DNA of 64,000 nt from Bdellovibrionales bacterium (GTDB lineage: Bacteria > Bdellovibrionota > UBA1018 > CAIMNF01): assembly GCA_040380025.1 (NCBI GenBank), contig JBEIJY010000001.1, positions 96,001-160,000 on the forward strand, given 5' to 3'. Shown here in pieces: positions 3,931 through 62,725 of this stretch (the stretch's first letter is position 1; each line of letters opens with the position of its first letter). Position numbers and translations under genes: made by a program. The notes under the pieces are model-generated. The model had not been told where the DNA came from. It saw only the letters and a program-made list of their open reading frames with translations, and made no database searches.

Positions 3931-4056
3931 GAGTTGTATTTTACAAAACCAGCGGCAACCGGTCAAATAATTCCCGGCAAAGCCGGGGAGGACGACTTCT
4001 CCCGGGCCACTTCTTCGCCCGTTTCAATTTGGCTAAGTCGAGCGAAGTGAGCGAAA

Positions 4057-4284
4057 GAGGCGTATGAATAATACGCCGGACTGAGCGAATCTGATGCGAG
4101 ACGACCCCAAATTGGATTGGGTGAAGAAGTGGTTGGGGCGCTAGGATTCATCTCGGCCGTCCCGGCCTCGACCATGCGGACGGCAGTCGCTACCGCTCCC
4201 GCCGTGCAAAAATGCCTCCGCTCCTGGCGGAGCTTCCTTGGCATTAACGCCCCAACCACTTCTCTCCTGTATCTCCCGGAATCC
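4057..4284. repeat. 228-bp direct repeat, copy 1 (contains tRNA-Gln 3'-end inverted repeats)
   Basis: Matches 5751-5978 at offset 1694 with 5 substitutions counted by eye; contains the 26-bp tRNA-Gln 3' end/flank (4124-4149) and its inverted copy (4248-4263). Confidence 0.95.
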
Positions 4285-4410
4285 GGGATAGAGCTGTCCT
4301 GTGTGTTGAAATCCATTGCGATCCGGTTCGGAGAAACAATCGGTTGCTGATCCCGGCAGATCAGTTGTGAACTGCGGGAGCGGGGTGGGGGGGCGGTACT
4401 CGATTCAACC

Positions 4411-4447
4411 TATGTAAAATTAAAAGCAATGATTTCAATTTTACATA
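4411..4447. promoter_or_regulatory. Palindromic operator upstream of AAA_14/DUF4143 gene
   Basis: Perfect 11-bp inverted repeat tatgtaaaatt-N15-aattttacata ending 9 bp before the ATG at 4457. Confidence 0.6.
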
Positions 4448-4456
4448 TGTTAAAAA

Positions 4457-5656
4457 ATGGTGCATAGTGGAGAAATGGCTCACACGAGACCCCGCCATCT
4501 GAAACCCGTTTTCGAGAAATCCCTTCGTTGGTCCCCTTCGGTGTCATTGCTGGGAATGAGGCAGGTGGGCAAAACCACCCTGATGAAGGAATTGGTGGAT
4601 CATTACCAAACCTTCGATGACGACACCCTTGTGTTCAAGGCGAATTCCGGGAATTGGTCGTTCGTGGATGCTCCCAAAGGAACTCTTGGTCTGGATGAGT
4701 GCCAAAAAGCTCCCTCTGTGTTCGATCGGGTGAAATTGAACATCGACCAAAGGAAGCGCCCCGGGCAATATGTGCTGAGCGGCTCCGTTCGCTTCCTCTC
4801 CAAAAAACAGATTCGCGAATCCCTCTCCGGAAGAACCGACATTCTCGAACTGTTTCCGATGGGCATTTCGGAATGCCATTCGGGGGAACCGAGCCGGTTC
4901 CTGCCCATTGCGCTGAAGCTCGAGGGGCAAGCATTGCTCAATAAGATCGAGAGCAACGCCCGATACTCGCGGAAACAAGTTGAAGACGGCTTCATTTCGG
5001 GCGGATTGCCCGGGATCTGCTTCTTGAGGGATGCCGCAGTCCGAAATGCGAAATTCAGGATCCAAATCGAGACGCTTTTGAGTCGAGACATCGAAATGAT
5101 CGCCCCGACCGATGTCGGATATGCAAAATTGAAGGCTCTCGCCACCGGGGTTTTGAAGGAGTGCGGATCTCCTGTCAATCATTCCCGCCTCGCGAAGAAC
5201 TCGGGCCTTTCGGCCCCTACTGTACGGAGACTCCTCGGAGCACTCGAGGGTCTGTTTTTGATTCGAAGACACGGTCGCTGTTTTTTCGGGACCGATACGG
5301 GACTCACCCATTTTCTGGTCAAGGAGTGGGAACCGGACTCCAGGCCATTCCTGTTGAGCACTGTTTTCATGGAGTTGACCCGTCAGCTTTCTTACAGATA
5401 TCCCAATCTTCACGAGTTCGATGAATTCCGGAGTCGAGGAGGCATCGATGTTCCATTCTTGATACGAGTCCAAGGCCATGCTCCGCTCGCGATTGTTCCG
5501 GACATTACGGAAGGCGCCTCGAACAAGTCGCTGATTAGCCTCACGTGGTTCAAGAAAAAATTCAAAGACGCGAAGACCATCGTTCTTCACCGGGGAAATC
5601 GGGCATATCAAGCCTCGAGCGGTCATCTCTGTTTGCCATACGAGATGATCTACTAG
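4457..5656 (+). CDS. AAA_14/DUF4143-family ATPase
   Basis: GMRQVGKTT Walker A, LDECQK Walker B, LSGS, ESLSGR, GGLP, wHTH-like SAPTVRRLLGALEGLFLI; C-terminal nuclease-like motif appears degenerate. Confidence 0.85.
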   Translation: MVHSGEMAHTRPRHLKPVFEKSLRWSPSVSLLGMRQVGKTTLMKELVDHYQTFDDDTLVFKANSGNWSFVDAPKGTLGLDECQKAPSVFDRVKLNIDQRKRPGQYVLSGSVRFLSKKQIRESLSGRTDILELFPMGISECHSGEPSRFLPIALKLEGQALLNKIESNARYSRKQVEDGFISGGLPGICFLRDAAVRNAKFRIQIETLLSRDIEMIAPTDVGYAKLKALATGVLKECGSPVNHSRLAKNSGLSAPTVRRLLGALEGLFLIRRHGRCFFGTDTGLTHFLVKEWEPDSRPFLLSTVFMELTRQLSYRYPNLHEFDEFRSRGGIDVPFLIRVQGHAPLAIVPDITEGASNKSLISLTWFKKKFKDAKTIVLHRGNRAYQASSGHLCLPYEMIY

Positions 5657-5750
5657 GTCGGGACCGAGATCTAGCGAGAAAGGGTTGCCGAATTCTTCAA
5701 GACTCTGCCCATTCTTCCGGATCGTATTCGGAATGACAACGGATCCGAGG

Positions 5751-5978
5751 GAGGCGTATGAACAATACGCCGGACTGAGCGAATCTGATGCGAGACGACG
5801 CCAAATTGGATTGGGTGAAGAAGTGGTTGGGGCGCTAGGATTCATCTCGGCCGTCCCGGCCCCGACCCTGCGGGCGGCAGTCGCTACCGCTCCCGCCGTG
5901 CAAAAATGCCTCCGCTCCTGGCGGAGCTTCCTTGGCATTAACGCCCCAACCACTTCTCTCCTGTATCTCCCGGAATCC
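5751..5978. repeat. 228-bp direct repeat, copy 2
   Basis: Near-identical to 4057-4284; tRNA 3'-end copy at 5818-5843, inverted copy at 5942-5957. Confidence 0.95.
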
Positions 5979-5982
5979 AGAA

Positions 5983-6055
5983 AGACCCGAGCGCTTGAAG
6001 CCGGAGAGGTCAGGATGACCGCAGGAGTCCTCCCCTACTTCAAGCGCTCGGGTCT
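5983..6055. terminator. 18-bp perfect inverted repeat downstream of tRNA-Gln (terminator-like)
   Basis: agacccgagcgcttgaag (5983-6000) / cttcaagcgctcgggtct (6038-6055), 37-nt loop with an inner GGTCA-GGA-TGACC hairpin; only a short U tract. Confidence 0.5.
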
Positions 6056-6084
6056 GTTTGAAAAATGGAAATAAAGGAAAGAAG

Positions 6085-6159
6085 TGGTTGGGGCGCTAGG
6101 ATTCGAACCTAGGAATGGCGGAATCAAAATCCGCTAGCTTACCACTTGCCGACGCCCCA
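6085..6159 (-). tRNA. tRNA-Gln (TTG)
   Basis: TGGGGCG acceptor pairs with CGCCCCA-ACCA; anticodon arm GCGGA-TTTTGAT-TCCGC; GGTTCGAATCC T arm. Confidence 0.97.
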
Positions 6160-17070: not shown

Positions 17071-17160
17071 GGAGAGATGGGTGAGTGGTCGAAACCACAC
17101 CCTTGCTAAGGGTGCAGGGAGTAACATCCCTCGAGAGTTCGAATCTCTCTCTCTCCGCCA
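17071..17160 (+). tRNA. tRNA-Ser (GCT)
   Basis: GGAGAGA acceptor / TCTCTCC-GCCA; anticodon arm CACCC-TTGCTAA-GGGTG; long variable arm; GTTCGAATC. Confidence 0.97.
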
Positions 17161-17206: not shown

Positions 17207-17216
17207 ATTTTGCACA

Positions 17217-17367
17217 GCGGGGAGAGAGAGATTCGAAGCGAGCAGACCGGCCTGCGGTGCAGGCTGAGCGAGCGTGATGCGAGCGAAAGGTCTGCGAGGT
17301 GGCCAGGCGGAGGAGCGGCCGGATGGCGCGACGAGCGCTTGGCCGAATCTCTCTCTCTCCGCCATTT
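17217..17367. repeat. Element bounded by inverted copies of the tRNA-Ser 3' end
   Basis: gcggggagagagagattcgaa (17217-17237, inverted) ... cgaatctctctctctccgccattt (17344-17367, direct copy of 17140-17163). Confidence 0.9.
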
Positions 17368-17405
17368 AAAAAAGGCTTCCGGGCATTTCCCCGGAGGCCT
17401 TTTTT
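17368..17405. terminator. Bidirectional intrinsic terminator
   Basis: aaaaaaggcttccggg-catttc-cccggaggcctttttt. Confidence 0.8.
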
Positions 17406-18160: not shown

Positions 18161-19303
18161 CTAATCCCCCGATTCCCCCCGGCGGGAGAGATCAAGCGTG
18201 GCCAGAAATTCATGTGCAGGAATGACACGGACCCCGCCCGGATAAAGCCTTGCTTTCGAAAGATGGAGTACTACCTGGATCTTTCGGGCATGGGGATGGA
18301 GCTTCTCGTAGTGTCGGAAGTTCTCGCTTGGATCCGGATCGCTCAGTTTCACCTCGATCAAATGAGTCACTGTTTTTCCGTCCATCACCGCAAAGTCGAT
18401 TTCCTGCTTCTGCTTGTTTCGCAGGAATCGAAGCTGAAGATCACACCCCTTGGCCTCGTTGAGATTCAGAATCTCTTTGTACAGGGACAAACCCACACAG
18501 TTCTCGAATCGGGCCGCTTCGTTTTCGATCCGGGGGAGGTCAAAAAAATACAATTTCGGCATCTTCTTGAGCGATGTCGCGGTAGTGCCCAGAGGATGGA
18601 TTCTGAAAAAAAGATATGAATTTTCGAGCATTTCGATCCAATTACGGATGGTCTTGTCGCTTTTCGAAAGATCCTCGCAAAGGGACTGATAACTCAGTAA
18701 TCCACCCACCTTTTCGGTGAGAAGCAAAAAAAGATTCTGAATATCGCTCAGGTTCCGGATGTTCTCGAGTTCGGCAAGATCCTGTTTCAGAATCACATCC
18801 AGATGGGAACTCCGCCATCGTCGATAATCGGAGACACTGCCACTGAAGAACGGCTCGGGGAAGCCCCCCACAGTCAGGATCCTCTCGAGAATCTCGCTTG
18901 AGGAGAGCGAGGGAAGAAGCTTCATTCCTTCTTTCACATCGATCGGAAGAAGCGTGTGATGAAAAAAACGGCCGGCAAGCGAATCCCCCGCTCTCCGGAA
19001 CGTGTTCATGCGGGCGCTCCCGGTCACGATCGTTTTTTCGGGTAAATGGCCGGTATCATACAACCCCTTCAGCCAGAGCTTCCAACGGTTGTGCTTGTGA
19101 AGCTCATCCAGCACCAAGGGAGTGTTCATTTCCCACCGCTGTTTGAGAATTGCGGTACGATCGTCCAGAAAATCGTAGTTATAGTAGGTGCAATCGGGGA
19201 ACAGAGATCGGGCAAGAGTGGTCTTTCCCACTTGCCGTGGCCCGCTCAGCAGAACCAGCTTTTTTCCGAGGTCTTTTTTGAGGTCGGTGCCGAGACTTCT
19301 CAT
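18161..19303 (-). CDS. AAA_14/DUF4143-family ATPase with PD-(D/E)xK-like C terminus
   Basis: GPRQVGKTT, LDELHK, VTGSAR, GDSLAGR, GGFPEP, KMPKLYFFD, FEN, QEIDF...IEVK. Confidence 0.9.
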   Translation of the reverse strand: MRSLGTDLKKDLGKKLVLLSGPRQVGKTTLARSLFPDCTYYNYDFLDDRTAILKQRWEMNTPLVLDELHKHNRWKLWLKGLYDTGHLPEKTIVTGSARMNTFRRAGDSLAGRFFHHTLLPIDVKEGMKLLPSLSSSEILERILTVGGFPEPFFSGSVSDYRRWRSSHLDVILKQDLAELENIRNLSDIQNLFLLLTEKVGGLLSYQSLCEDLSKSDKTIRNWIEMLENSYLFFRIHPLGTTATSLKKMPKLYFFDLPRIENEAARFENCVGLSLYKEILNLNEAKGCDLQLRFLRNKQKQEIDFAVMDGKTVTHLIEVKLSDPDPSENFRHYEKLHPHARKIQVVLHLSKARLYPGGVRVIPAHEFLATLDLSRRGESGD

Positions 19304-62590: not shown

Positions 62591-62725
62591 GCGGGATGGA
62601 GGGAAGGGATTGGAATGATTCGATTTTCCCCTCCGAGCCGCGTCCTGCGGCCTCGCTTTCGCGCGTCACGCGCTCGCGAGAGTCGGGGAAAACCGAATCA
62701 TCCCAGTCCCGTCTCTCCATCCCGC
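62591..62725. repeat. 135-bp imperfect palindrome between flhB and flhA
   Basis: gcgggatggag..gggattgg.atgattcg.ttttcccc / ggggaaaa.cgaatcat.ccagtccc..ctccatcccgc; core homologous to 37329-37422. Confidence 0.85.

Follow-up and report, generated by a model that had tools for sequence, protein, structure and literature searches.

What kind of element carries the 3' end of a tRNA, in both orientations, around a body that is not a tRNA? The question is raised by the DNA downstream of the tRNA-Gln(UUG) gene at 6085-6159 (minus strand; ARAGORN; Rfam tRNA model, 59.6 bits) of a Bdellovibrionales bacterium. The window analyzed is a stretch of 64,000 nucleotides of contig JBEIJY010000001.1 (positions 96,001 to 160,000 of the forward strand; assembly GCA_040380025.1), and all positions are those of the window unless another contig of the genome (C5, C13, C26, and so on) is named. 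A preliminary description had proposed a class of tRNA-tailored palindromic elements, either non-autonomous mobile units whose insertion creates an inverted target copy or tRNA-mimic RNAs. The present analysis shows that the body of the element is R1, a structured repeat that occurs across the phylum, is missing from the catalogues, and in its tRNA-linked members has the architecture of RtT, the repeat found behind the tRNA-Tyr genes of Escherichia coli. The apparent terminal inverted repeats are a local by-product of a leftover piece of the tRNA and the arm of a neighboring palindrome, and are not the hallmark of a transposon.

The copied tRNA end is readily traced. The 16-mer AGAAGTGGTTGGGGCG at 4125-4140 (+) and its exact inverse at 4248-4263 form perfect arms, the pair recurs at 5819-5834 and 5942-5957, and a fifth copy at 6080-6095 is the 3' end of tRNA-Gln itself. 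These five occurrences compare with 0.01 expected, and 0 of 100 shuffles reached five; the perfect inverse arms and their repetition at 5819-5957, as first described, are thus borne out. Allowing a mismatch, the arms measure 19 nt at 95% complementarity and stand 101 nt apart. On the tRNA strand, the order downstream is tRNA-Gln, a palindrome (X, 5978-6060, minus strand, recognized by its inverted repeats) directly behind it, module a, the beginning of a second palindrome (B), an AAA_14/DUF4143 gene, module b, and a full palindrome B. Each module consists of an inverted copy of the tRNA end with its trailer, about 100 nt of nested hairpins, and a direct copy of 26 nt. All of these parts lie on the minus strand: the inverted copy at 5939-5957 (19 nt, 95%, including the exact 16-mer), the R1 core at 5840-5928, and the direct copy at 5818-5843 in module a, and their counterparts at 4245-4263 (again an inverted repeat holding the 16-mer), 4146-4234, and 4124-4149 in module b. 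The 26-nt block is 100% identical at 4124-4149, 5818-5843, and 6079-6104, and spans tRNA-Gln from the GAAT of the T-loop through CCA to 5-6 nt of trailer. The two modules belong to a larger repeated unit of 233 nt (4052-4284, minus strand), made up of the end of an X arm, the inverted copy, R1, the direct copy, and the start of B, which has a second copy at 5746-5978 with 97% identity. Folding of a 149-nt stretch of the Gln module on the tRNA strand gave -83.8 kcal/mol, against -55.5 +/- 3.7 for shuffled sequences (z = -7.6; 0 of 200 shuffles equal), with three hairpins enclosed by a long closing stem. The GC-rich nested hairpins noted earlier between the arms are therefore real.

The core is widely conserved. 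In relatives, sequences that match the Gln core at 75-81% stand behind tRNA-Gln, tmRNA, tRNA-Pro, tRNA-Ser(tga), and tRNA-Arg(tct), and an alignment and covariance model were seeded with 12 copies from 8 genomes. In this alignment R1 is about 88-90 nt long and comprises hairpins H1, H2, and H3 plus a small GCCC...GGG hairpin, with compensatory change at 19 of 25 pairs. H1 is terminator-like on the tRNA strand, its stem being joined to GCATTTTTGC. In this genome, the model found the two Gln copies (copy a, 77.9 bits, E 4e-17; copy b, 72.2 bits, E 1.2e-15) and nothing else. On wider scales, R1 was detected in 13 of the 19 family genomes, in 37 of the 116 that represent the order (7 of 12 families), and in 20 of 151 sampled over the phylum. 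Among 65 copies, in an alignment that was fitted to the model and so favors structure, 93.8% of paired cells are complementary, against 63.3% after shuffling and 33-50% when partners are slid. Both sides vary at 25 of 25 pairs, and the covariation score is 0.606 versus 0.153, a value that none of 500 shuffles reached. The 1462 cells include 46 G-U but just 11 A-C pairs, and in copies away from tRNAs the ratio is 13 to 1. Such an excess indicates that the folded strand, whether as RNA or as single-stranded DNA, is the tRNA-sense strand.

Database searches did not account for R1. A scan of the window at Rfam gathering thresholds returned two tRNAs and no match for the module, the Gln module had no Rfam match at E values up to 10, matches to the Ser module described below stayed at chance level, and a literature search on tRNA-linked hairpin repeats and on small RNAs of Bdellovibrio and CsrA found no description of the R1 family. 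R1 is a candidate new RNA family for Rfam. The earlier suggestion of an undescribed system stands to this extent, but the layout itself is not new, as it is shared with the RtT/tyrT repeats of E. coli discussed below.

Where R1 adjoins tRNA sequence, its place is precise. Within the family, 21 of 28 R1 loci have a tRNA or tmRNA gene upstream on the same strand, 85-607 nt away, and in 18 of these 21 between 9 and 20 nt of the tRNA 3' end, from the T-loop on, directly follow R1. The genes concerned encode tRNAs for Gln, Arg, Met, Ser, Pro, Glu, and Val, as well as tmRNA. A survey of R1 flanks covered 41 loci, 26 of them tRNA-linked and 14 others. The 3' piece is present in 24 of the 26 tRNA-linked copies, and the 5' strand of the T-stem plus TTCRA stands directly before R1 over at least 6 nt in 21 and at least 8 nt in 17. 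Because this 5' piece includes wobble positions, it is a direct copy of the tRNA, and together the two flanks show R1 seated within the T-loop of a partial tRNA copy in direct orientation. The ends of R1 (CGAC... on one side and ...GAGATGAAT or ...GAGATAAAA on the other) themselves look like two halves of a T-loop. No target-site duplication was evident at the junctions, which show 0-2 nt of ambiguous overlap, none of it constant.

The inverted copy is far less regular. At a threshold that would yield about 2 of 41 loci by chance, 9 of 26 tRNA-linked loci, in addition to window copy b, have the tRNA end significantly repeated in inverse orientation upstream of R1, as do 0 of the 14 others. Since the inverted copy is found at so few loci and R1 also exists away from tRNAs, terminal inverted repeats are no trait of the family; nor are they shared among its members as in a terminal-inverted-repeat transposon or miniature inverted-repeat transposable element (MITE), the arms changing with the tRNA. 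Thus, a class of non-coding hairpin modules tailored to many tRNAs and to tmRNA does exist, but its definition by terminal inverted repeats does not hold; what stays constant in the family is the R1 core together with a direct tRNA piece that is split in its T-loop. The Gln copies of the window are atypical: they are without the 5' half of the T-arm and the first bases of H1, and an arm of palindrome X adjoins H1. The inverted arm of module a doubles as the right arm of a larger imperfect palindrome centered on X, whose left arm is the genuine tRNA-Gln end and trailer (5939-5970 and 6067-6098; 32 nt, 88%). It is this replacement of the 5' T-arm half by the far arm of X, that is, by the inverted tRNA end and trailer, that produces the striking 19-bp "terminal inverted repeat". 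We rejected the possibility that a decayed tRNA copy had left its 5' acceptor strand as the inverted copy, because the latter goes on as the complement of T-stem and CCA and not as tRNA 5' sequence.

Behind tRNA-Met in four species of the genus, the order of tRNA, terminator, spacer, R1, tRNA piece, and terminator is kept. Identity among the four species is 100% for the tRNA, 53-74% for R1, whose H1 stems have been exchanged by compensation, and 37-62% for the spacers. Other R1 copies are away from tRNAs. Of 16 copies inspected in the genome richest in R1, 11 are without a tRNA in the surrounding 1.2 kb and stand just ahead of a terminator hairpin, and five copies in complete genomes of another family have no tRNA link.

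Related modules occur at other tRNAs of this genome. A scan of all tRNAs for copies of their own 3' ends, as had been recommended, found them near 5 of 40: Gln, Ser(gct), Leu(tag), Glu(ttc), and Arg(acg). The copies are spaced 204, 224, 261/1694, and 282 nt, and at all five tRNAs the identity begins in the T-loop. The claim that the same architecture recurs at tRNA-Ser was also correct. Behind tRNA-Ser(gct) (17071-17160), a module at 17208-17373 (plus strand), with a terminator hairpin on each side, comprises an inverted copy (about 17208-17237), a "type-2" core, and a direct copy (17344-17373; 30 nt, 97%), and its stem of 15 bp is followed by a free GCCA. The type-2 cores behind tRNA-Ser and behind tRNA-Arg(acg) on contig C26 are about 79% alike despite their different tRNA-derived ends. 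The tRNA-Arg(acg) locus (C26, 3376-6700) has an 18-nt inverted copy of the tRNA end with TGG as its first bases, and two type-2 cores 2.6 kb apart with several small genes between them; of two ORF6N-domain genes, one closes this cargo and the other stands just past the distal core. At tRNA-Leu(tag) (C5, 22500-23223), a 282-nt unit of tRNA end, palindrome B, and another core is repeated about 1.7 times in tandem, beginning within the T-loop of the tRNA.

Module presence varies among species at the same tRNA. Across 10 species, the tRNA-Ser(gct) locus is empty in four, which have the tRNA and one terminator only; a single unit of 204 nt is present in this genome and two units in another species, and three have unrelated AT-rich DNA. 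In one relative (G001, locus L017), an IS3-family insertion in an R1-type module at this tRNA severs H3 and the tRNA copy. The DNA between or beside modules includes accessory genes. AAA_14/DUF4143 ATPase genes matching the PADLOC defense candidate PDC-S01 lie beside the modules of both tRNAs in the window, one between the two Gln modules (4457-5656, plus strand; Pfam 1e-19, PADLOC 2e-55) and one near the Ser module (18161-19303, minus strand; 2e-46). The genome has nine AAA_14 genes, three of them within about 3 kb downstream of a tRNA. Modules also bracket the ORF6N genes behind tRNA-Arg (C26), and in relatives the cargo includes toxin-antitoxin antidote, HTH, Fic, and GNAT genes. In one DNA run (X1), the contig holding the AAA_14 cassette (4255-5793) has a depth of 24.3, against 28.9-29.4 for its flanks; this may hint at cells that are without the cassette, which contig depths cannot show.

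The loops of R1 offer a clue to function. GGA occurs in the loop of H1 in 40, of H3 in 55, and of both in 38 of the 65 copies, and the longer motif CAGGANG in 23 H1 and 31 H3 loops, many of which read CAGGAUG or CAGGAGG. The repeat of the small RNA CsrB is CAGGA(U/A/C)G presented in hairpin loops (PMC7652899), and R1 resembles RNAs of the CsrB/RsmZ type in having GGA motifs of this kind in its own loops. A CsrA protein is encoded in this genome (PF02599, 92.9 bits, contig C36). Additionally, CsrA-binding small RNAs, RrA/B/F, are reported from between the dual terminators of E. coli rrn operons (PMC8144298); R1 modules are similar in lying behind a stable-RNA gene and between two terminator hairpins.

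The closest architectural parallel is RtT. In the E. coli tyrT/tyrV loci, the last part of every 178-bp unit is a copy of tRNA-Tyr that starts at AATCC in the T-loop and runs to the 3' end of the tRNA. Immediately before this copy stand CCCGAAGGG, a GC hairpin, and GAGT, and about 110 nt upstream the tRNA end recurs in inverted, degenerate form. RtT (RF00391) and the modules described here thus share non-coding units that follow a tRNA gene as tandem copies with the orientation of the tRNA, each having a GC-rich hairpin core, an inverted tRNA copy upstream, and, as its last part, the 3' end of its own tRNA from the T-loop on. They differ in that R1 belongs to another phylum, sits between two halves of a T-arm copy, has accessory genes between its modules, and contains a terminator-like first hairpin and two CAGGAUG loops. 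Searches in either direction between R1 and RtT gave no significant match in sequence or structure; a full-length alignment of R1 to tyrT scored 6.1 bits, with CCCGAAGGG, the hairpin, and GAGUAAU in register. Below threshold, RF00391 also matches over its full length (about 124 nt, 13.6-19.5 bits) at 62599-62722 (minus strand) and at five other places in the genome. We know of no accepted function or origin for RtT, which has been an orphan of E. coli since the late 1970s. The RtT architecture is now found in a distant phylum together with very strong covariation across 65 copies, a precise seat in the T-loop, and conserved CsrB-type loops. RtT-family RNAs are reported to adjoin other tRNAs in Pasteurellaceae (PMC4986893), and another study finds the tyrT-rttR region enriched in exonuclease-resistant DNA under stress (bioRxiv 10.1101/2024.07.17.603846).

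Our preferred explanation, which we hold tentatively and with considerable doubt, is that R1 is an RtT-like structured RNA, driven by tRNA promoters and bearing CsrA-type loops, and that its DNA copies additionally provide homology for the gain and loss of cassettes. The module would be transcribed from the strong promoter of the tRNA by reading through the hairpin behind it, a read-through that would resemble that giving rise to E. coli RtT and to the rrn dual-terminator small RNAs. R1 is joined at its 3' end to the leftover 3' part of the tRNA, which begins midway in the T-loop and extends a few bases past CCA, and in most relatives the T-stem of the direct partial tRNA copy closes it. The RNA is predicted to fold into a three-way junction with the tRNA-derived stem closing it, and could offer its two CsrB-type (CAGGAUG) loops to an RNA-binding protein that acts as a dimer, with CsrA as the most plausible candidate. 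As DNA, the repeated modules might supply portable homology at a tRNA where insertions concentrate, so that a 1.7-kb unit of the defense-candidate gene and one module would be gained, and possibly lost, by recombination between module copies. This proposal offers a testable function, namely CsrA binding coupled to the transcription of tRNA operons, and a clue to how small defense genes may gather at tRNA hot spots without a resident integrase.

Several observations weigh against the proposal. The terminator-like H1 could end read-through before the other two hairpins and the tRNA copy are reached. Many loci have a decayed or shortened direct copy: it has decayed in two of the four tRNA-Met loci of the genus, and several direct copies end after 8-15 nt, so a CCA-ended, tRNA-like 3' end is not under strict selection. 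Among 19 R1 copies away from tRNAs, by crude open reading frame calls, a co-oriented reading frame lies ahead of six and 12 converge on the 3' end of a gene on the opposite strand, a distribution that also argues against R1 being a simple 3'-UTR element. Known CsrA sponges carry many more GGA loops than one R1. Each R1 has two, short of the at least four motifs by which CsrB/Rsm RNAs are recognized, a number to which arrays of units could add. The kinship with RtT lacks a significant score: RF00391 gives 14.6 bits (E 3.6) for the Ser module and at best 19.5 bits in the genome, below its gathering score of 45 bits, and the R1 model reaches no more than 6.7 bits (E 0.09) against tyrT of E. coli. 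Finally, the structural statistics from the 65 copies are subject to the favorable alignment mentioned above. A bolder extension appears quite unlikely to us, namely that R1, its look-alikes, and E. coli RtT belong to a single ancient class of small RNAs that spans phyla. Its members would be expressed from the promoters of tRNA and tmRNA genes, would be closed and processed by the minihelix that a tRNA has left behind, and would titrate CsrA-type regulators in step with stable-RNA synthesis, while their DNA copies would double as portable homology by which defense-gene cassettes are captured at tRNA genes.

Searches were made for several enzymes that might mobilize R1. Among 68 neighboring proteins from 10 loci of relatives, no integrase or transposase was found except one "Recombinase" fragment of 169 aa, and the open reading frames of the window cassette include no integrase or transposase. 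Four tyrosine recombinases are encoded in this genome, all on other contigs, and the contexts of the two larger integrases (C31 and C35) showed nothing informative. One relative with four R1 copies has only two tyrosine recombinases, both Xer-sized (PF00589 counts). The suggestion of a HUH/RAYT partner did not hold up: 22 of the 37 R1-bearing genomes have a Y1_Tnp gene, as do 57 of the 79 in which R1 is missing, so that these genes do not track the element, and the genome with 17 R1 copies has no Y1_Tnp. Similarly, AAA_14 was proposed as a partner and rejected as such, as it occurs as cargo in this genome only and in 0 of the 68 neighboring proteins in relatives; it is cargo and not machinery. 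A TnpB/omega-RNA system, with R1 as scaffold and the flank as guide, was dismissed since no TnpB was found in 5 genomes, and a reverse transcriptase with a primer-binding site, an idea taken from the TGG-starting 18-nt copy behind tRNA-Arg, since the genome has no RVT_1. No serine recombinase was found in the genome. A search for Y2/IS91 transposases gave no match in 5 genomes and is uninformative, the control also having matched nowhere. The single Y1_Tnp-like (HUH) open reading frame of the genome (C13, 34580-35300; 27.5 bits) may be without the catalytic tyrosine, and is followed by a palindrome with a perfect stem of about 110 nt.

Two alternatives treat R1 as a DNA element. One is that R1 is a non-autonomous recombination module, its folded tRNA strand, with a duplex copy of the tRNA gene's 3' end as stem and R1 in the loop, serving as a single-stranded att site like integron attC or the attP(+) of CTX phage, and that a Xer protein or integrase encoded elsewhere puts small gene cassettes into tRNA T-loops. 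The tRNA junction lies in the T-loop in all tRNA-linked copies, and the T-loop is the classic crossover place of tRNA-targeting integrases, as Williams reportedly set out in 2002. The arrays of module, cargo, and module with small accessory genes also speak for this reading, as do tRNAs that are empty in some species and filled in others, and shortened tRNA copies followed by unrelated, often AT-rich DNA. The strand-specific fold fits as well, but it is not specific to such sites. Conventional integrase scars (attL/attR) are comparable in that a direct repeat of the tRNA 3' part, here 26-30 nt, bounds DNA missing in relatives, in arrays at one tRNA and with accessory or defense-type cargo. They differ in that here the bounded DNA neither contains nor adjoins an integrase gene, most units measure just 204-282 nt, a structured core is always at the junction, and an inverted copy is present in some. 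Displaced tRNA 3' pieces should not always be annotated as integrase scars. We consider a recombination module somewhat unlikely, given the paucity of recombinases near the copies and in the four-copy relative, and given that R1 splits the T-loop between the T-stem halves, which would destroy a conventional core site. In addition, the copies are diverged and not recent, this genome has just two, most of those inspected in the richest genome are far from any tRNA piece, and contigs of four DNA runs show no excision joint at the element, where the assembly breaks at the repeat. The other alternative is a selfish repeat like repetitive extragenic palindromes (REP) or MITEs, with no function for the cell, preferring T-loop-like or A-rich sites near terminators and persisting only where earlier integrations of islands had left tRNA fragments that the cell can spare. 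Template switching as the DNA replicates would maintain the self-complementarity of its hairpins, and the same palindrome-extending process would have made the inverted tRNA copy. R1 is similar to REP, BIME, and REPIN sequences and to hairpin MITEs in being a short, GC-rich, non-coding intergenic repeat that is dispersed near gene ends and terminators, the non-tRNA copies standing just before terminators; the T-loop-like ends of R1 and the lack of target-site duplication are also compatible with a selfish repeat, and rtT-like elements were placed among the enterobacterial BIMEs by Naville and Gautheret (PMC2965389). Unlike these repeats, R1 has no conserved terminal repeats, its copies are diverged with compensatory changes, and it is tied to tRNA T-loops without a RAYT/Y1 link. 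A selfish origin is unlikely in our view: no mobilizing enzyme tracks the element, reverse transcriptases, serine recombinases, and TnpB having been absent within the scopes given above; loop sequences are conserved besides stems, which template switching does not account for; and the tRNA-Met arrangement is kept in four species while stems change by compensation.

The remaining alternative, that the module is a purpose-built tRNA mimic, is close to one branch of the preliminary description. The stem of inverted and direct copy would imitate an acceptor/T minihelix with CCA, and the RNA would either be matured by RNase P, RNase Z, or the CCA-adding enzyme or act as a decoy for a tRNA-targeting enzyme. 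The Ser module, with its free GCCA, has the appropriate shape, and the module is co-oriented with the tRNA at every tRNA-linked locus. Release of E. coli RtT from the tRNA transcript, which two later papers credit to Bosl and Kersten 1991 (PMC2965389, PMC4986893), is likewise in keeping with a mimic. In the Gln module, however, the pairing covers ACCA and five more bases and so leaves no free CCA end. Moreover, the inverted strand on which the minihelix depends is significant at the minority of tRNA-linked loci given above, and direct copies are often shortened or mutated in the acceptor/CCA part. A mimic is accordingly very improbable.

The two palindromes at the tRNA-Gln locus show further regularities. 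Palindrome B (about 120 nt; 4007-4132, minus strand; arms of 26 nt at 85%) begins at the CCA of a direct copy: its first bases are the CCA of the tRNA or tRNA copy, and its last are the complement of CCA. It is homologous at the tRNA-Gln and tRNA-Leu(tag) loci (C5, 22.7-23.1 kb; blastn 81%) and also across species (relatives L002, L004, and L009), and in one relative it stands alone behind tRNA-Gln. The tip of palindrome X (5978-6060) resembles a hairpin behind tRNA-Arg (C26, 3454-3650), and the tip motif common to both, CATCCTG, is the reverse complement of the R1 loop motif. These palindromes may therefore hold R1-like hairpins in the opposite orientation.

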